From NCBI GenBank assembly GCA_002840285.1, contig PHAE01000004.1:7706-71705 (forward strand): a stretch of DNA of 64,000 bases. The letters are read 5' to 3'. This stretch comes from Firmicutes bacterium HGW-Firmicutes-11 (GTDB lineage: Bacteria > Bacillota > Clostridia > Peptostreptococcales > Anaerovoracaceae). Within the stretch, counting starts at the first letter, position 1. Each line of letters begins with the position of its first letter. Of this stretch, positions 2,634-40,917 are shown piece after piece. The notes under the pieces were generated by a model that saw only the letters and a list, made by a program, of their open reading frames with translations, ran no database searches and was not told the origin of the DNA. Both the position numbers and the translations under genes were made by a program.

Positions 2634-3818
2634 ATGCTAATCATAAAAACGCTGGGCAAGGTAAACATTTCCCATCGAGGAGAAGATATAAGCGAGAAAC
2701 TCAGTCACAAGATGGTGGCTCTGATTTGTCTGCTTGTCATATACAACGGAAGAGAAGCCGGCAAGGAAAAAATCGCAGCGTACTTTTGGCCAGACAGCGA
2801 TGACGAGGCATCCAAATATAATTTGCGTTATAGCCTATGGATGATCCGCAAGTTGATTCCCAAAGATAAAAAGGGCGAATCGCTGATCACCGTGGGCAAG
2901 GACAGTTGCCGTATCAACGAGAAGTACGACTTCACGTGCGATAAAATTTTATTGGATCGGTTTCAGGCGAAGAAGGGAAGTTCTATTCAGGAACTGGAAG
3001 AACTGCGTCGCCAGTTTCAAGGGGATTTTCTAGAAGGATTGTACCTGAAAAACTGCAATGAGTTCAATGAGCTGATTCTTTTTGAACGAGTCGTTTGTCA
3101 GAACAAGCAGATCCAGATTCTTAAAGAACTTGCGGACCTCTACGAAAAAGCAGGCAAGCGGGAAGATGAACTCGTCATACTGAAAGAAATGGCCATGATC
3201 GAGCCATATAATGAAACCTTTGTTCGCCGGATCATGGAAGCACTGGCTGCTATTGGCAACCGCCCTGCTGCGATTCAGGCATTTAAAAGATTTGAAACCG
3301 TTTTACGCAGAGATCTGAACATTCAACCGGAGCAACACCTGAAAGCCATGCATGCAAGCATGCTCACCGCCCCATGCGTCGGGAACCCTGACGGAACGAA
3401 AGTCAGTATCACGAATCGGAAACGAATACATATCAAGGTTCGCTGCATGAAGGGCGTCGATTACTTTTTGCTTGCAGGAATCGTAAGTGAGCTTTTAAGA
3501 GTAGCTGATAAAAGTTACATTATGGATATTGAAGAACAGTACCTTTTGGATCTGGGATTCATACAAAACGAATTGCTGTTAGCATATGAGGCCCAGTCAT
3601 CCCGAAAAGTCAAGATCCCGGATTCGGTCCCTGACGTTAGGATCATAAACGCTTTCTGCAAATTTATCCATCATGTTTCACAGGTTTATGAAATGGATAT
3701 CGATGTCGTTGATGCTTTGGAAATCGATGTCGTCTCCCAAAATATTATAAAACATGTACGCCAGACAGAGCCGCTAAACCAGTACTTTCATTTTTCATTT
3801 GATGCTGATATAATGTAA
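2634..3818 (+). CDS. SARP/BTAD-like transcriptional regulator with uncharacterised C-terminal half
   Basis: N-terminal roughly 240 aa resemble a winged-helix plus bacterial transcriptional activator domain (WPD...A..NLR..L..LRK; helical TPR-like region ending AI.AF.RFE..LRRDLNIQP). The C-terminal roughly 150 aa have no motif I recognise. Confidence 0.6.
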   Translation: MLIIKTLGKVNISHRGEDISEKLSHKMVALICLLVIYNGREAGKEKIAAYFWPDSDDEASKYNLRYSLWMIRKLIPKDKKGESLITVGKDSCRINEKYDFTCDKILLDRFQAKKGSSIQELEELRRQFQGDFLEGLYLKNCNEFNELILFERVVCQNKQIQILKELADLYEKAGKREDELVILKEMAMIEPYNETFVRRIMEALAAIGNRPAAIQAFKRFETVLRRDLNIQPEQHLKAMHASMLTAPCVGNPDGTKVSITNRKRIHIKVRCMKGVDYFLLAGIVSELLRVADKSYIMDIEEQYLLDLGFIQNELLLAYEAQSSRKVKIPDSVPDVRIINAFCKFIHHVSQVYEMDIDVVDALEIDVVSQNIIKHVRQTEPLNQYFHFSFDADIM

Positions 3819-9367: not shown

Positions 9368-9372
9368 GAAAA

Positions 9373-9532
9373 TCTGTTTCAGGGCGAGGTGAAATTCCTC
9401 ACCGGCGGTAAAGAGCGCAAGCTACGAGTCCGCGAGCCGCAAGGCCGAACCGGTCAGATCCCGGTACCGACGGTTTTGTCAAAGACGCGCATCGTGTCGG
9501 TCGACAAAGAAAGTCCGGATGAAAGAAACAAG
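9373..9532 (+). promoter_or_regulatory. FMN riboswitch (RFN element) aptamer
   Basis: Conserved RFN blocks are visible: AGGGCGAGGTGAAATTCCTCACCGGCGGTAAAG, GTCCGCGAGCC, GGTCAGATCCCGGTACCGACGG, AAAGTCCGGATGAAAGAAACA. The P1 stem CTGTTTC/GAAACA closes the element. It carries an extra hairpin insertion (TTTGTC...GACAAA) before AAAGTCCGG. Confidence 0.85.
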
Positions 9533-9560
9533 GTCCGATTTTTGGATCCATGTATTCTTG

Positions 9561-9590
9561 AGCCCTGGGAAAATTCCCGGGGCTTTTTTT
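9561..9590 (+). terminator. intrinsic terminator (FMN riboswitch expression platform)
   Basis: GAGCCCTGGGAAAATTCCCGGGGC hairpin followed by TTTTTTT, about 60 nt upstream of the ribU-like start. Confidence 0.7.
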
Positions 9591-9648
9591 GCCTGACAGA
9601 TTCCCGCGCATTGGGTTTGCAGGTGCAGACCAAAGGAGGAATTTGAAC

Positions 9649-10185
9649 ATGTCAAGAACTGAAAAGACCGCCAGACTAGCTAAAATGGCTATGCTAGCAG
9701 CCATCTCCCTCGTATTGGTGATGGTCATCCGTATCCCGTTTCCGCCGGCTCCATTTTTAGTGTATGATCCGGCAGATGTGCCTATCATCATTAGCGCCTT
9801 TGCTTTCGGCCCATTGTCAGGACTGGCGATAACCTTTGTGGTCAGCTTCATCCAAGCCTTCGCACTAGGCGGCGATGGAGTCATCGGATTCTTTATGCAC
9901 ATGGTAGCAACGGGATCCTTTGTTCTGGTATCCGGTCTCATCTACCGGAAGCATAAGACAAAAAAAGTGGCTTTGATTGCGTTGATTGCCGGAGCGTTGA
10001 TAATGACTGTCTCTATGATCGGATGGAACCTTTTGATCACGCCAATTTACCTTGGTGTTCCAGTAGAAGCGGTCATCGGCATGATCCTTCCGATACTGCT
10101 GCCCTTCAACTTGTTGAAGGCTGGAGTCAATGGTCTGATCATCTTTCTTATATACAAGCCGATCGCAAGATTTCTCCACAAGTAA
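9649..10185 (+). CDS. ribU: ECF transporter S component, riboflavin-type (RibU-like)
   Basis: ATG at 9649 preceded by AAAGGAGGA; the track ORF start at 9589 lies inside the riboswitch terminator. Multi-TM 178-aa protein directly downstream of the FMN riboswitch. Confidence 0.8.
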   Translation: MSRTEKTARLAKMAMLAAISLVLVMVIRIPFPPAPFLVYDPADVPIIISAFAFGPLSGLAITFVVSFIQAFALGGDGVIGFFMHMVATGSFVLVSGLIYRKHKTKKVALIALIAGALIMTVSMIGWNLLITPIYLGVPVEAVIGMILPILLPFNLLKAGVNGLIIFLIYKPIARFLHK

Positions 10186-11430: not shown

Positions 11431-11870
11431 ATGGATACCGGATACGAACCGCGGAAGAGAGGGATATCGACCGACTGACCGAACTGGACGCATTGTGTTT
11501 TAGCATGCCCTGGAGCAGGGAGGCCTTTCACCAAGAACTCTGCGAAAACCCGCTAGCGTTTTATATGGTGCTCGAAAGCGAGGACAACGTGATTGGTTAT
11601 GCCGGACTTTGGATGATCCTTTCGGAAGGCCACATCACAAATGTGGCGGTAGAACCTGCCATGAGACGCAAGGGATTGGCGGAACTGCTGCTGCGGGAAC
11701 TTTTCCAACAGGCAGGGGACAGGGGCATTCAAAGGTTCACTCTGGAAGTCCGTCCGTCCAACGTAGCAGCCAATGGTCTGTACGAGAAACTGGGGTTTGT
11801 CGTAATGGGCCGGCGGAAGCAGTACTATGAAGACAACGGTGAGGATGCCTTGATCCTCTGGAGAGGATAA
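11427..11870 (+). CDS. rimI: ribosomal-protein-alanine N-acetyltransferase RimI (GNAT)
   Basis: 147-aa GNAT fold (RRKGLAELLL, acetyl-CoA binding motif) in the conserved position between tsaB and tsaD. Confidence 0.85.
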   Translation: MNGYRIRTAEERDIDRLTELDALCFSMPWSREAFHQELCENPLAFYMVLESEDNVIGYAGLWMILSEGHITNVAVEPAMRRKGLAELLLRELFQQAGDRGIQRFTLEVRPSNVAANGLYEKLGFVVMGRRKQYYEDNGEDALILWRG

Positions 11871-11876
11871 GAATCA

Positions 11877-12896
11877 ATGAAGGACGGAAAGCATATAACG
11901 CTGGCGATCGAAACCAGCTGTGATGAAACCTCAGTTGCCCTGATGGGCGACGGGCGAGAGATCCTTTCCAATGTGATCTCTTCCCAAATCAAAATCCATC
12001 AAGTCTTCGGTGGTGTCGTGCCGGAGATCGCATCTCGTCATCATCTCGACAACATCAATCCGGTCCTGGATCAAGCACTTGCGCGATCCGGGTGCAAGTT
12101 GGAGGACGTGGATCTTTATGGCGTCACCATCGGGCCTGGCTTGGTAGGAGCGTTGTTGATCGGTCTGGCAACCGCGAAAGCTTATGCCTTCGCCACAGAA
12201 AAACCACTCATCGGCGTCAATCACATGCAAGGACACATCAGCGCAAACTATATCGAAAATAAAGAACTGACGCCTCCATTTTTATCGCTCGTTGTATCCG
12301 GCGGACACACCGAACTCATCGACGTCAAGGGGTATAATGAGTTTGAGATCCTTGGAAGAACAAGAGACGATGCGGCAGGGGAGGCCTTTGACAAGGTGGC
12401 GAGAGTCCTGGGACTCGGGTATCCCGGCGGCCCCATGATCGACAAGTCGTCAAAGGAAGGGAATCCTTCCGGCATCGAGTTCAAACGGGTGATGCTGGAA
12501 CGGGACAGTCTTGATTTCAGTTTCAGCGGTCTTAAGACCGGCGTGCTGAATTACCTCAATACAGAAAAGCTGAAAGGCCAAGCAATCAATGTGGAGGATG
12601 TCGCAGCATCCTTTCAGCAGGCAGTGGTTGAAGTGCTGGTGACCAAGGCGATGATGGCGTCGGAACAGACCGGCAGAGACAAACTCGCTCTTGCCGGTGG
12701 TGTCGCCGCAAACAGTCTACTTCGCAAACTGTTGAAAGAAGCCTGTGACAAAGCTGGAATAACCCTTTACTGTCCTTCGATCGAGCTCTGCACCGACAAT
12801 GCGGCGATGATCGGATGCGCTGCTTATTATCGCTATCTGTACGGGCAGGTCGATGGATTGGACCTGGACGCCCATCCTTCACTGGAGCTTCTATAG
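11877..12896 (+). CDS. tsaD: tRNA N6-adenosine threonylcarbamoyltransferase TsaD
   Basis: 339 aa of the Kae1/Gcp family ([13 protein letters not shown] metal site, GGVAAN). Confidence 0.95.
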
Positions 12897-23289: not shown

Positions 23290-24831
23290 ATGAACCACCA
23301 AAAAGTGATCGTCGCCGATTTCGGCGGACAGTATAACCAGTTGATCGCAAGAAGAGTCCGGGAAGAGAACGTCTATTGTGAGATCGTGTCCTATTCCCGA
23401 TTGATGGAGTCGATCCAGACAGAACGGCCAATGGGCGTGATCCTGACCGGCGGCCCCAACAGCGTTTATCTCGAAGGAGCGCCGTTGTTGCCGGCAGAGT
23501 TCTTCCGGATGGGGATCCCGGTCCTTGGCATTTGTTACGGTGCCCAGCTGATGGCCCACGTCCTTGGCGGCAGCGTCGCAAGCCCGGATAATAAAGAATA
23601 TGGTAGGGTGAAGATCAGCACCGAAGACAGCGAGCTGTATCACGGTATCGGAAGCGACGAGGTCTGCTGGATGAGCCACACCGACTATATCGAGCGTGTA
23701 CCGGAAGGGTTTCGTGTATCGGCGATCACCGAAAACTGTCCCACCGCCTCGATGGAAGACCCGGCGGCAAAGCTCTATGCAGTGCAGTTTCATCCGGAAG
23801 TCCATCACACTCCCTTCGGACAGACGTTGCTCCGCAACTTTCTAACCCGTGTCTGTGGTTGCGTCGGCGACTGGACCATGGACACCTTTGCCCGGGACAA
23901 GATACAGGAAGTCAAAGAAACCGTTGGAGACAAAAAGGTGATCTGCGGTCTTTCCGGCGGAGTGGATTCTTCCGTCGCCTCCGTATTGGTCCACGAAGCC
24001 ATCGGCGACAACCTGGTCTGCATTTTCGTTGACCACGGCCTGCTGCGCAAGGACGAAGGCGATCAAGTCGAAGAGGTTTTCGGTAACCAATTCCAGATGC
24101 GCCTGATCCGAGTCAACGCCAAAGACCGTTTCCTGTCCAAGCTTTCCGGAGTGACCGATCCGGAGAAGAAGCGGAAAATCATCGGAGAAGAATTCATTCG
24201 CGTCTTCGAAGAAGAAGCAGCGAAACTGTACCAATCTCTGGGAGATATCGCATATCTCCTGCAGGGAACCATATATCCTGACGTGGTCGAAAGCGGCGTC
24301 GGAGAATCGGCGATGATCAAGAGCCATCACAACGTGGGTGGCCTGCCGGACGATGTCGACTTCACCTTGCTCGAGCCTCTGCGCCTCCTGTTCAAAGACG
24401 AGGTCCGCAAAGTCGGCGAAGAGCTGGGGATCGCCAGCGAGCTAGTCTGGCGTCAGCCATTTCCCGGCCCCGGACTCGCTGTTCGCTGTTTAGGAGAGAT
24501 CACAGAAGAAAAGCTTGAGATCCTCCGGGAGTCGGATTTCATCTTGAGGGATGAAATCAAAAAAGCCGGCTTAGAGCGAGAGATCTGGCAGTACTTCACC
24601 GTGCTCCCCAATGTCAAAAGCGTCGGCGTCATGGGCGATTACCGTACCTACGACCACACCGTCGGCATCCGCGCTGTCACCTCCGTCGATGGCATGACCG
24701 GCGACTGGGCCCGGATCCCCTTTGAAGTCCTTGAAAAAATAAGTAATCGAATCGTCAACGAAGTCAAAGGCGTAAATCGCATCGTATATGACATCACAAG
24801 TAAGCCACCCAGTACGATTGAGTGGGAGTAA
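23290..24831 (+). CDS. guaA: GMP synthase (glutamine-hydrolysing)
   Basis: GATase domain ([16 protein letters not shown]), ATP-PPase SGGVDSS motif, and conserved C-terminus ...[11 protein letters not shown] 23290 has the best RBS spacing (AGGAAAGGA); the track start is 23269. Confidence 0.95.
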
Positions 24832-25180
24832 TACCCAATTCGGCAAGCCCGAAGGGAGCCGCCGAATTGTTGGTATTACCCCCGTCAGGGTTGGCGAGAC
24901 TTTTATGAGCGAAGTGATATAAAAGTCCGCAACCTACGGCGCAACAGAACCCAATTCGGCAAGCCCGAAGGGAGCCGCCGAATTGTTGGTATTACCCCCG
25001 TCAGGGTTAGCGAGACTTTTAAGCGAAGCGAAAAAAGTCCGCAACCTACGGCGCAACAGAACCCAATTCAGCAATCCCGAAGGGAGCCGCCGAATTGTTG
25101 GTATTACCCCCGTCAGGGTTGGCGAGACTTTTAAGCGAAGCGAAAAAAGTCCGCAACCTACGGCGCAACAGGACCCAATT
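24832..25180 (+). repeat. tandem array of three complete 112-116 bp units plus the first 7 nt of a fourth
   Basis: The word CCCAATT recurs at 24834, 24950, 25062 and 25174 (periods 116, 112, 112). Units are near-identical and each contains several hairpins. The array begins 1 nt after the guaA stop. Confidence 0.9.
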
Positions 25181-25212
25181 TAAAATCTTTTTATAGACAG
25201 GGTACAACGATA

Positions 25213-25532
25213 GTTGTCTCATTGCTTAGCAGTCACCCCCATTGAGACAACAATCCACGGGAACTTGATTGATTTTGGTCCGAGACTCCGCACCTTATGC
25301 CCATCAGCAGTTCTGGCGAAAGTTTAGTTGTCTTTTGGCGGACGGGAAAATAAAATTGAGACAACAAATTCAGTTCAACGGCAGAATGATGTTGTCTTAA
25401 ATCCCTCAAGTCGATGAGAAAAGACAACTAAGCCCGAAAAATGAACCAAAGGAAGTCAGTCATGTGACAAACACCCCTATTTTGAGCAAGAAAGTTGTCT
25501 CTAAGGATCTTAAGACCAAATTGAAAGACAAC
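25213..25532. repeat. cluster of four inverted repeats GTTGTCT-N24/25-AGACAAC
   Basis: GTTGTCT at 25213, 25327, 25391, 25494. AGACAAC at 25245, 25359, 25422, 25526. Orientation strictly alternates, with arm-to-arm offsets of 32, 32, 31 and 32 bp. Confidence 0.8.
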
Positions 25533-25573
25533 TAAGCCGGGCAGAACCTATAGGGCGGATAGCATTAAACATA

Positions 25574-25608
25574 GGGACGGTCTCTTTTTAAGAATCGAGA
25601 ACCGTCCG
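25574..25608. other. hairpin GGACGGTCTC-N12-GAGAACCGTCC (related to the 27198-27253 hairpin)
   Basis: Imperfect 10/11-bp stem followed by GTTTC. Shares the GGGACGGT(T)CTC / GAGAACCGTCC word with the hairpin at 27198-27253. Confidence 0.4.
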
Positions 25609-25628
25609 TTTCATTCAATTGCACATTA

Positions 25629-25669
25629 GAATTTGTAGGTATTACCCCGCCAGGGTTAGCGATAGCTTT
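25629..25669 (+). repeat. degenerate partial copy of the guaA-proximal repeat unit (distal part of the interrupted fourth unit)
   Basis: GAATTTGTAGGTATTACCCCGCCAGGGTTAGCGATAGCTTT aligns to the unit segment GAATTGTTGGTATTACCCCCGTCAGGGTTAGCGAGACTTTT with a few mismatches or indels. Confidence 0.6.
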
Positions 25670-25769
25670 GATGATAAATGATGCTGCTGCAATAGGTGAT
25701 TCCATTGAATGCCAATGACGACGGAGGTATTCGACTCACAAAGGTCTCAAGAAACACACGAGGTGCAAA

Positions 25770-26696
25770 ATGAAACGAAGCGATGAACGAGACATCATGT
25801 TTTCGCGAATGGCAAGAAAGCCAAACACGAAAGAATATGACCAGTATTATTCCCTTCATCCAGAGCTCCTTGAAATTGATGATACACTGCGAGCACAAAT
25901 GCCGATCGGGAAGCCTGGCGACCGCTTTTATGATTCGCTAAAGACCTCTACGGTGGATGCAGCCTTTCAGTTTCTGGATAGCATCAAACCTCTTGTCGAA
26001 GGTCCAACGGCTTCAAAGATTCTCACCACTGGGACTGCGGAAGATTTCACTGCCCACATTAAAAGCATTGCCGAATTGTATGGTGCCAGTGTGACCGGAG
26101 TAGCAAAGAGCGACGAATCCTTTTACTATTCACATCGAGGTCGTACCGATCAGGTATATGGAGATTCTGTCAGCATAGATAATTGGCCCCATACCATCGT
26201 GTTTGCTGTCCCGATGAATGAAGCTATGATCCGAAAGGCTCCAAAAGCAGAAGAGAGTATAGCTGTGACCCAAGGGTATGTTCAGGCTGCTATCGTTGGG
26301 ATGATACTCACATACACAATAAAGGCGTTTGGCTATGAAGCCAGAAACCACATGGATGGGAATTACCTTTGTACTTTGCCACTCGCTGCAAAAGCAGCTG
26401 GTATAGGGGATATTGGGCAGCATGGCCTGATCATAACAGAGGCGCATGGTCCAAGAGTGAGACTTGGCGCGGTATCTACAAATCTACCCCTGGTAAACGA
26501 TCCACCATTTTCAAAGTCAATTGCGCCGATTTGCGAGACATGCCGAAGATGTGTCAGAAACTGTCCATCAAAAGCTATTCCTAATGACATTTTGGCAACG
26601 ATCACACAGGAAAAGTGCTTTGAAAAGTGGTTGGAATACGGAACCGATTGCGGTATTTGTCTTTCGGTGTGCCCGGGATTTGACGAAGGGAAGTGA
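25770..26696 (+). CDS. reductive dehalogenase / epoxyqueuosine reductase (QueG)-family Fe-S protein, cytoplasmic type
   Basis: 308 aa. C-terminal CETCRRCVRNCP and CGICLSVCP ferredoxin-type motifs after an RdhA/QueG-like core. No Tat signal. GC content is visibly lower than in the flanking genes. Confidence 0.65.
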   Translation: MKRSDERDIMFSRMARKPNTKEYDQYYSLHPELLEIDDTLRAQMPIGKPGDRFYDSLKTSTVDAAFQFLDSIKPLVEGPTASKILTTGTAEDFTAHIKSIAELYGASVTGVAKSDESFYYSHRGRTDQVYGDSVSIDNWPHTIVFAVPMNEAMIRKAPKAEESIAVTQGYVQAAIVGMILTYTIKAFGYEARNHMDGNYLCTLPLAAKAAGIGDIGQHGLIITEAHGPRVRLGAVSTNLPLVNDPPFSKSIAPICETCRRCVRNCPSKAIPNDILATITQEKCFEKWLEYGTDCGICLSVCPGFDEGK

Positions 26697-39791: not shown

Positions 39792-39994
39792 GTCGGTTCC
39801 CGTGACCGTCCGGGTCTGTGGTTGCAAGTCCATGCCAGCTACGGGCAAAAGGACCCACGTAAACTGTCCGCATTGCGGCAGCGAGCATGGCGTAGTCTAG
39901 ATATAAGTCCTGACGTCAGCCTTTATGGTTAGATTCAGCGGCAGGCGAGTGTGGGGGCAAAGACCAGGTCAGCCGGACGGTCACGGGAACCGAT
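39792..39994 (+). ncRNA. structured RNA, candidate raiA-motif ncRNA
   Basis: The 20-nt segment CGGTTCCCGTGACCGTCCGG (39794-39813) is perfectly complementary to CCGGACGGTCACGGGAACCG (39973-39992) and encloses about 160 nt of GC-rich non-coding sequence. Location between comFC and hpf (raiA) matches the reported context of raiA-motif RNAs. Strand is assumed from that context. Confidence 0.6.
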
Positions 39995-40392: not shown

Positions 40393-40917
40393 ATGAAAGT
40401 GATCATCACCAGCAAGAATTTTAACGCAAGCGACCACCTGAAGAAGATCATAGAATCCAAATTCGAAAAACTGGGCAAATATTTTTCCAAGGATATCGTT
40501 GCAAACGTGACTCTGTCGATGGAAAAAGGCAGACAAAAAATGGAAGCAACGATCAACGCCAAGGGAACCATTTTCCGCGCTGAAGAAGAAACCAGCGATG
40601 TGTATGCCGGGGTCGACAAAGTCGTCGACAAACTGGCGACCCAGATGTCAAGATTCAAGACAAGACTGCTCAGAAAACATAAAGACAACAAGGAGTTTGC
40701 ATTTGACGATCTTCCGGATTCATCGGAATCGGAAGAGACTGTAGTTGTCAAGAGAAAGAAGTTCGATCTGATTCCTATGACGATAGAAGAAGCCATCATG
40801 CAGATGGAGCTTTTGGAGCACAATTTCTACGTCTTCCTCGACATGGACTCTGAAACGGTAAACGTTGTGTACAAGAGAAAAGACGGAGACTACGGTATTT
40901 TGGAACCCTCCTATTGA
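40393..40917 (+). CDS. hpf: ribosome hibernation promoting factor (long HPF)
   Basis: 174 aa. The N-terminal sigma-54-modulation/RaiA fold (ITSKNF..., LEKLGKYF) and the C-terminal dimerisation domain (KRKKFDL.PM..EEA..QMELL.H.F..F) are typical. Confidence 0.92.
   Translation: MKVIITSKNFNASDHLKKIIESKFEKLGKYFSKDIVANVTLSMEKGRQKMEATINAKGTIFRAEEETSDVYAGVDKVVDKLATQMSRFKTRLLRKHKDNKEFAFDDLPDSSESEETVVVKRKKFDLIPMTIEEAIMQMELLEHNFYVFLDMDSETVNVVYKRKDGDYGILEPSY

Follow-up and report, generated by a model that had tools for sequence, protein, structure and literature searches.

Four arm pairs between guaA and an RdhA-like gene

The 64-kb stretch of Firmicutes bacterium HGW-Firmicutes-11 analysed here (64,000 nucleotides, hereafter the window) carries a non-coding array of short inverted repeats between guaA, which follows guaB and ends at 24831, and the gene of a 308-aa RdhA-like Fe-S protein, which starts at 25770. 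Eight 7-mers make up the array, GTTGTCT at 25213, 25327, 25391 and 25494 and AGACAAC at 25245, 25359, 25422 and 25526, all of them exact and each at the coordinate given in a preliminary description of this DNA. They form four pairs, called sites S1 to S4 (25213-25251, 25327-25365, 25391-25428 and 25494-25532), and these are exactly the four matches of GTTGTCT-N20-30-AGACAAC in 64 kb, with actual spacers of 24 or 25 nt; 100 dinucleotide-preserving shuffles gave no match. When two mismatches were allowed across the 64 kb, only two weak extra matches appeared, both inside genes, and no convincing further site. The nine remaining copies of the 7-mer in the window are isolated, as had been reported; their placement inside coding regions, also reported, holds in a looser form for the three that were inspected, which lie in or next to coding sequence. 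The four-site feature is real, non-random and conserved.

The arms alternate strictly in orientation and keep a constant spacing, a description that was borne out across the whole array, and the two subtypes recognised earlier are exact: the 13-mer ATTGAGACAACAA occurs at 25241 and 25355 and the 15-mer AAAGACAACTAAGCC at 25420 and 25524. The gap between S2 and S3 measures 25 nt as well, the length of a spacer, which puts the four central arms at even intervals of 32/32/31 bp. An alignment of 44 arms extends the conserved unit to about 11 bp, T-W-GTTGTCT-Y-W, and dyad symmetry between left and right halves beyond the arms is weak (z = 1.2-2.4). The spacers had been called unrelated in sequence. 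This is so within the window; among the members of the family described below, however, the S2 and S3 spacers are conserved in part.

The surroundings of the array are those of a chromosome. The 48 proteins of the window, examined with a Pfam scan, are products of core chromosomal genes (groEL, guaBA, glmS/glmM, cdaA, tilS, ftsH and others), with no transposase, recombinase or Y1/RAYT protein (REP-associated tyrosine transposase; REP, repetitive extragenic palindrome) among them, and the earlier remark that no gene for an obvious cognate protein is adjacent can be extended to the whole 64 kb. GuaA is closest to Anaerovoracaceae / Clostridiales Family XIII, being about 76% identical to the proteins of Anaerovorax and Sinanaerobacter, and identical copies of the window sequence, itself a metagenome contig, are present in ENA ERZ27239239 and Logan SRR3546453. 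The raiA RNA and the FMN riboswitch of the window agree with an origin in Bacillota.

A homologous module dispersed to unrelated loci

The four sites are parts of a homologous module of about 330 bp that is dispersed to unrelated loci, a finding that the preliminary description did not cover. The relative L003, whose downstream protein is 90% identical, is syntenic with the window, array included. Scanned with a three-arm pattern, a metagenome collection returned 42 stretches, mostly chance matches or unrelated repeats. In four contigs among them, all of one sample (Ga0209231: L145, L128, L163 and L134), homology runs through all ~330 bp and takes in gap 1 (CACGGGA...CGCACCTTTGG.CC.TCA.CAGCTCT) and gap 3 as well as parts of the spacers of S2 and S3. 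A four-member profile aligns to 25208-25545 of the window (E=1e-97) and matches family members only, among all sequences searched with it. Homology to L003, L145, L128, L180, L163 and L134 begins at TA|GTTGTCT and stops about 12 nt past the last arm. Longer contigs were obtained through exact-sequence look-ups of flanking proteins; one of them, a 121-kb contig of a metagenome-assembled genome (L180/L181), has an orthologous copy flanked by a TetR gene and a PNPOx gene. From this contig, L134 and L163 are most likely the two halves of one array that broke assembly.

The distinct loci are the region downstream of guaA, a position 190 bp upstream of purE-purC, a position next to a tRNA-Glu gene, and the ferritin/PNPOx locus, all of them in uncultured relatives among the Clostridia (Anaerovoracaceae-like). 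In three independent samples, contigs stop within the module or right next to it, as a multi-copy repeat is expected to break assemblies. One sample, SRR22388156, holds the guaA copy (L003), the ferritin copy (L184) and a crcB flank that adjoins the tRNA-Glu copy (L187), so that a single genome may hold at least four copies. Outside this circle the module was not found. Relatives at 79-83% GuaA identity lack it after guaA and carry different genes there; the exact three-arm pattern gave only unrelated matches in 185,579 species-representative genomes; blastn against plasmids and phages found nothing similar; in viral contigs a single-site pattern scan gave chance matches only and two further pattern scans gave nothing; and a full-text search of the literature for the 7-mers returned primer sequences only. 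The family is thus rare and lineage-restricted, known from only about five loci in a few metagenomes, with members that are mutually related.

The whole module reads TA-S1-gap1-S2-gap2-S3-gap3-S4-TAAGCCGGGCAG and occupies 25211-25544 on the plus strand (~330 bp), within limits set by the profile and by homology; S2 is likewise given the plus strand, and the other parts carry no strand assignment. Its ends are 9-bp terminal inverted repeats, TAGTTGTCT...AGACAACTA. S1 (arms 25213-25219 and 25245-25251) has a 25-nt spacer, and its arms do not vary in any of the five members that bear this site. Gap 1 (25252-25326), of 75 nt in the window and of 75 or 64 nt among members, an 11-bp step, contains a small variable hairpin (25258-25290) and then a conserved block, CCGCACCTTATGCCCATCAGCAGTTCT (25288-25314). 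Gap 2 (25366-25390, 25 nt) is hypervariable in sequence and constant in length (24-25 nt): those of L180 and L163 are unalignable, yet identical in length. S3 (arms 25391-25397 and 25422-25428) has a 24-nt spacer with the partly conserved AAAT.CC.CAAGTCG. Gap 3 (25429-25493), of 65 nt in the window and of 65 or 54 nt among members, comprises AAAGGAAG (25448-25455), a covarying hairpin, GTCAGTCATGTGAC (25455-25468), and a ACACCCCTATTTT tail; on the minus strand TTCCTTT comes after the hairpin, which then has a terminator-like look. Finally, six of the seven pairs of S4 (arms 25494-25500 and 25526-25532, spacer 25 nt) are invariant.

S2 (25327-25365) doubles as a sigma-A-like promoter directed rightward. 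A promoter scan matched it at 9 of 12 positions, with TTGTCT as -35 (25328-25333), 17 nt of separation and TAAAAT as -10 (25351-25356), and this explains why the 3' half of the S2 spacer is conserved. The element reads TTGTCT-16-TAAAAT in L003 and L163, has CAAAAT as -10 in L180, reads TTGTCA-17-TTAAAT in L145, and is absent from L128; it is predicted to be active. What lies downstream depends on the locus: the RdhA-like gene directly in L003, purE in L128, a weak terminator-like hairpin (25574-25612) in the window, and a convergent gene in L134/L180. No consistent terminator follows S4, and L003 runs straight into the next gene. The window hairpin, GGGACGGTCTC...GAGAACCGTCC and then GTTTC, separates the module from the RdhA-like gene, and the whole segment of about 210 bp around it is missing in L003, where the module abuts the gene.

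Several copies show irregularities. L145 has, at 3094-3240, a 5'-truncated tandem partial copy made of the last 15 nt of the S1 spacer, gap 1 and one site with a new spacer; its gap 1 is ~95% identical (by eye) to that of the first copy, and a strong terminator and the tRNA-Glu gene, on the opposite strand, follow. Two contigs depart from their sisters at arms, L189 (~2720) inside the left arm of S2 (TTAGTTG|GACTTTT) and L191 (1-43) at the left arm of S3 (GGTGT|GTTGTCT, where L128 has ATTGTCT). The novel flanks match nothing in the sequences searched, and the junctions are either recombination at arms or assembly chimeras. A second, unrelated repeat, a near-perfect palindrome of ~108 bp (CAGGTGCCAGACAC...GTGTCTGGCACCTG), stands in place of S1 at L180:8560-8667 and just right of the module at L134:3400-3506; it looks like an inverted-repeat transposable element of miniature size (a MITE) that targets or accompanies the module. 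At L180:8523-8542 a GACAAC-N8-GTTGTC motif and two GAACNTTGTTC palindromes lie in the promoter region of the module-adjacent TetR-family gene. That gene was considered as a shared partner of the copies and rejected, since it was not found near any other copy. In L177, at 83% GuaA identity, a phage-type tyrosine integrase gene (11677-12525) lies directly downstream of guaA, as would suit an integration hot spot at the 3' end of guaA. Repeats of GACAAC/GTTGTC units about 11 bp apart, in opposite-orientation blocks around a central segment, occur in L160, L171, L173, L174 (Prevotella-type), L132, L135 and L153; they have the hexamer in common with the arms and no similarity to the profile.

Selection on the arms and helical geometry

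The preliminary description took the arms for the recognised part of the feature, which could not stand if arms mutated as freely as spacers in relatives. They do not. Between the window and L003 the arms differ at 1/56 positions, the spacers at 18/99 and the inter-site gaps at 33/165, and the three codon positions of guaA differ by 2.7%, 1.6% and 26%. At a second locus, L180 compared with L163/L134, the arms show 0/40 real differences (the two that were counted are contig truncation) and the non-arm positions 44/223. Pooled over these two independent orthologous comparisons, the arms differ at ~1/96 positions and the rest at 95/487 (~20%), a roughly 20-fold higher conservation of the arms than of the spacers; the Fisher p of ~1e-5 is conservative, the two contig-truncation gaps being scored as arm differences. 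The arms evolve like codon positions 1 and 2, and the remainder evolves slightly more slowly than synonymous sites. This pattern shows strong purifying selection on the arms where the loci are orthologous.

The distances between arms are quantised. Over seven members, consecutive arm offsets take only the values 31, 32, 33, 61, 71, 72 and 82 bp: the gap-1 offset is 82 or 71 and the gap-3 offset 72 or 61, so that lengths change in 11-bp steps. The gap-1 shortenings of L128 and L145 lie at different alignment positions, which suggests that they were independent events. In each of four full members the arm phases give a mean resultant length of 0.93-0.96 with a sharp peak at 10.3-10.4 bp/turn, a value reached by none of 5000 random placements. 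Under a stricter null, in which the ~32-bp within-site spacing is fixed and the three gaps are randomised, single members give p values of 0.012-0.055 and share a best period of 10.4. All eight arms thus lie on one face of B-DNA, 3, 6, 7 or 8 turns apart.

Outside the arms, AA/TT dinucleotides have a best period of 10.2-10.5 bp, and with the arms masked by +-6 nt this periodicity remains at p <= 0.004 in the window, L003 and L145 and at 0.033 in L180. In every member its phase is 130-170 degrees from the arm centres. Major-groove contacts with narrow A/T minor grooves half a turn away are the classic signature of protein-bent DNA, as in the nucleosome and in CAP/IHF-type complexes. The phased arms with AA/TT in antiphase are such a signature and point to DNA bent or wrapped around a sequence-specific protein oligomer.

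What the module may be

We favour, as no better than an even call, the reading that the ~330-bp intergenic module acts at the level of DNA as a docking platform for a sequence-specific DNA-binding protein; from its pattern of conservation and phasing we infer protein binding, DNA wrapping and a function that serves the host rather than an element. Each ~11-bp arm would be a half-site for one protein subunit. Given arms of alternating orientation and equal spacing, two-fold axes would relate the subunits, which might form a dihedral oligomer or a dimer-of-dimers chain. The DNA-binding array suggested earlier is favoured, but a simple dimer bridging 32 bp is not required, since each arm may bind one subunit. 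The A/T-rich minor grooves, half a turn from the arms and on the same side, would pre-bend the DNA to wrap or loop over ~320 bp. Such a complex would cover the S2 promoter, and, the -35 hexamer being itself an arm, a protein on it would touch RNA polymerase or compete with it; most plausibly it represses or gates rightward transcription.

In mechanism, the closest analogue is PurR of Bacillus subtilis on paired PurBoxes. Short phased repeats that flank a promoter, bind protein cooperatively and wrap DNA are also known from R1 parC/ParR-type centromeres and iteron arrays, where the repeats are direct, one to two turns apart, on plasmids and beside par or rep genes. The module likewise has short phased repeats on either side of an embedded promoter, but its arms are inverted and alternating, at least three turns apart, chromosomal and without a partner gene. 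B. subtilis PurR recognises two inverted boxes whose centres are ~30-31 bp, or three turns, apart in A/T-rich surroundings; loading of several dimers goes with DNA wrapping and altered supercoiling, and in Firmicutes the sites lie close to promoters (PMC8789054). The module resembles this arrangement in having arms 31-33 bp apart that are A/T-flanked, phased and overlap a promoter. It departs from it in its core, TTGTC/GACAA, in its eight arms over 320 bp as against two PurR boxes, and in the homology of its copies over 330 bp, PurR sites being independent operators; no PurR gene was seen.

Several observations weigh against a docking platform. Taken member by member, the phasing p values of the stricter null are modest, and the members are themselves related. 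L128, which also lacks the -10 box, shows no significant AA/TT periodicity. A 4-bp hairpin in gap 3, compensatory at 2/4 pairs and the only covarying helix, suggests a possible action of part of the module at the RNA level. In a normal regulon, isolated sites upstream of target genes would be expected, and only arrays, with no such site, were seen in the related sequence searched. Copies that are homologous over the whole module at unrelated loci are what one expects of a repeat or mobile element more than of an operator. The family numbers only about five loci in few metagenomes, and the 64 kb offers no obvious binder, its only DNA-binding candidates being the generic regulators Rex, a BTAD protein and a DUF134 protein.

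If the module is a docking platform, it would be a compact and tractable case of DNA sequence alone specifying a large wrapped nucleoprotein complex, with half-sites, helical phase and bending signals all readable and conserved, in uncultured gut and anaerobic-digester-type Clostridia of which almost no regulatory biology is known. It would also bring one more family to the few interspersed repeats of bacteria that serve the host, with bacterial interspersed mosaic elements (BIMEs) as the classic example, and the 11-bp arm or the 330-bp module would be a defined bait for the DNA-binding protein. The novelty is moderate: the phased operator array and the interspersed mosaic repeat are known kinds and the module fits them, although it belongs to neither the PurR/PurBox operators nor the BIMEs; new are the lineage-restricted family and its unusually legible architecture.

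The most serious alternative, which we nevertheless consider unlikely, is a non-autonomous mobile element (MITE- or BIME-like) spread by transposition, whose arms bind a transposase or recombinase encoded elsewhere and whose phased layout serves the transpososome. MITEs with internal promoters, such as the Neisseria Correia elements, are small, non-coding and intergenic, have terminal inverted repeats and TA ends, and may carry a promoter and a protein-binding site. The module shares with them its 9-bp terminal inverted repeats, its length of ~330 bp and the lack of any conserved open reading frame (ORF), the frames being broken by indels across members. Mobility would also explain copies in contexts as unrelated as guaA downstream, purE upstream, tRNA-Glu and ferritin/PNPOx, the relatives without a copy at guaA, the assemblies of three samples that break at copies, the truncated tandem copy of L145, the L189 and L191 junctions at arms, and the co-occurrence of a second palindromic repeat. 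Unlike in a MITE, however, the arms are also internal and set on a helical lattice, and they are purified at two fixed orthologous loci while the rest drifts near-neutrally; this selection speaks against a selfish element, since a dead resident copy is not expected to show it. Only TA flanks both ends, and a target-site duplication cannot be demonstrated because TA belongs to the repeat and flanks internal arms too. Nor do the relatives that lack a copy, with their different neighbouring genes, offer a clean empty site. No parent autonomous element with the module ends was found in the metagenome, genome, viral, plasmid and phage searches, nor any parent element, transposase, RAYT or recombinase in the window or any flank, which is absence of evidence only; the module matches nothing in plasmids, phages or viral contigs, and its known copy number is low. 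If it is a MITE, it is still an unusual one, with internal phased binding sites conserved at fixed loci.

In its genomic behaviour the module is closest to BIMEs. These RAYT-mobilised repeats of E. coli, Stenotrophomonas and Xanthomonas are extragenic and multi-copy, consist of alternating, regularly spaced REPs with unrelated linkers of discrete length, are polymorphic in length, and bind IHF and gyrase (PMC2817692). Regular spacing, alternation (offsets of 31-33/61-82 bp) and intergenic position are common to both. REPs are imperfect palindromes of 20-40 bp in which complementary mutations maintain the hairpin; a genome holds more than 100 of them together with a RAYT gene (PMC2817692). The module forms one cluster in 64 kb, with ~5 loci known and no RAYT among the 48 window proteins. 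Membership of the REP/BIME class was rejected, its unit being a non-palindromic arm of 7-11 bp without compensatory changes. The docking-platform and mobile-element readings are compatible, and a domesticated repeat would fit both.

A bolder version of the docking platform, which we hold to be doubtful, would make the module an undescribed kind of bacterial chromatin landmark: a dispersed, curved DNA superstructure of ~320 bp and ~30 turns with eight inward half-sites and antiphase A/T tracts. At a few intergenic loci it would set the place of a large sequence-specific protein particle, nucleosome-like or gyrase-like in its wrapping, that controls local transcription or topology. It would then have arisen by domestication of interspersed repeats or have converged on them.

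The fixed-geometry RNA hairpins listed in the preliminary description fare worse and seem improbable. The module would here be a structured non-coding RNA in which GUUGUCU/AGACAAC stems of 7 bp close loops of 24-25 nt, perhaps as a protein sponge or an alternative-pairing switch. Single sites do fold as predicted, with minimum free energies of -8.2 to -13.5 kcal/mol, so that the hairpins are thermodynamically possible; the gap-3 hairpin covaries, the promoter-like element in S2 could transcribe S3 to S4, and multi-copy small-RNA gene families do occur at unrelated loci. Pairing was counted on a seven-sequence alignment for the four arm stems and two small hairpins, and there the arm stems show no compensatory or wobble change: 22/28 pairs never vary, and the other six vary through seven cells, all of them pair-breaking, which gives no sign of selection for pairing. 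The mutated arms (GTTGTCA/AGACAAA in S2 of L145; AGACCAC, ATTGTCT/TGACAAC and TTTGTCT in L128; ATTGTCT in L003) decay independently of each other, in the manner of half-sites. All arms being identical, RNAalifold pairs them arbitrarily on either strand, with a covariation term of only -0.8 to -1.8 kcal/mol, and the folding z-scores of S2 (-1.9) and S4 (-1.5) are unremarkable. In 24600-25900 and in the related loci Rfam 15 gave nothing at gathering score and nothing meaningful even at E<=10, so that a known structured RNA family was rejected; the lack of a consistent terminator after S4 argues in the same direction. RNA folding predicts neither the 11-bp quantised gaps, nor the 10.4-bp lattice, nor the antiphase AA/TT, all of which favour a DNA-binding array among the options first listed.

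A purine-regulon operator, in which the arms would be the local PurBoxes of a PurR-type repressor of guaBA and purE, is very hard to sustain. Two of the ~5 loci do involve purine genes, one copy lying downstream of guaB-guaA and another 190 bp upstream of purE-purC, where no purine riboswitch was found, and the geometry matches PurBox pairs in the distance between centres (~30-31 bp), the A/T-rich flanks and the wrapping (PMC8789054). The PurBox itself, however, is a 14-bp box with a central CGAA/TTCG, inverted and 16-17 bp apart (PMC8789054). The arm logo has a TTGTC/GACAA core and no CGAA, and PurBox membership was rejected in spite of the similar spacing. Moreover, the purE promoter has a PurBox-like TTCG-N24-CGAA of its own, overlapping its TATAAT (L128:1246-1277; also L190:356-387 and L191:323-354) and distinct from the module arms. 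The tRNA-Glu and ferritin/PNPOx loci are not purine loci, the window module lies after guaA and not before it, and operators of one regulon normally lack 330 bp of shared homology.

Equally remote is a recombination or inversion switch (shufflon- or inverton-like) with arms as crossover sites and flipping segments that change promoter orientation: it would suit the strictly alternating arms, the S2 promoter between inverted arms, the two assemblies with junctions exactly at arms and the recombinant look of the L145 partial copy, but all seven members are collinear with no spacer or gap inverted, segments of 24-75 bp are too short for synapsis (the minimum length being taken from Hin, Fim and Rci), no recombinase gene lies in the window or flanks, and the junction flanks match nothing among the sequences searched and may be assembly artefacts. 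The recombinase arm-site array proposed earlier is less likely, with no recombinase nearby and no inverted variant seen, and a shufflon or invertible promoter was rejected as a class on the assembled sequences.

Other candidate identities and neighbouring features

Three further identities were tried and rejected. By the criterion of direct 24-48-bp repeats with unique spacers and usually cas genes, the array is not a CRISPR array: its repeats are of 7-11 bp and inverted, only two 13-15-mers occur as direct repeats, and there are no cas genes in the window. Integron attC sites have the consensus RYYYAAC...GTTRRRY around imperfect palindromes of 57-141 bp, next to intI; GTTGTCT misfits GTTRRRY (T and C at positions 5-6), and the window has no integrase. 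A small protein was also considered. A 44-aa ORF called in L003 lacks a start codon in the window, shows no third-position bias in its substitutions (hand count), and has no homologue but itself among 5.8 billion proteins; a small ORF past AAAGGAAG was discarded as a gene because the window reads ATG-TGA there.

Left of the array, and beginning 2 bp past the guaA stop, lies a 112-bp tandem repeat of 3.1 copies at 95% identity (24833-25180), each unit of which contains an CAATTCGGC...GCCGAATTG hairpin. A partial fourth copy lies right of the array (25633-25669); an independent assembly (L001) has two copies and L003 only a remnant. Farther away, a raiA-motif RNA (39805-39981, 136.7 bits) lies upstream of an hpf/S30AE-family gene (40393-40917), and a flavin mononucleotide (FMN) riboswitch (9371-9534, 91.3 bits) upstream of a gene for a riboflavin S-component of the energy-coupling factor (ECF) type (9589-10185).

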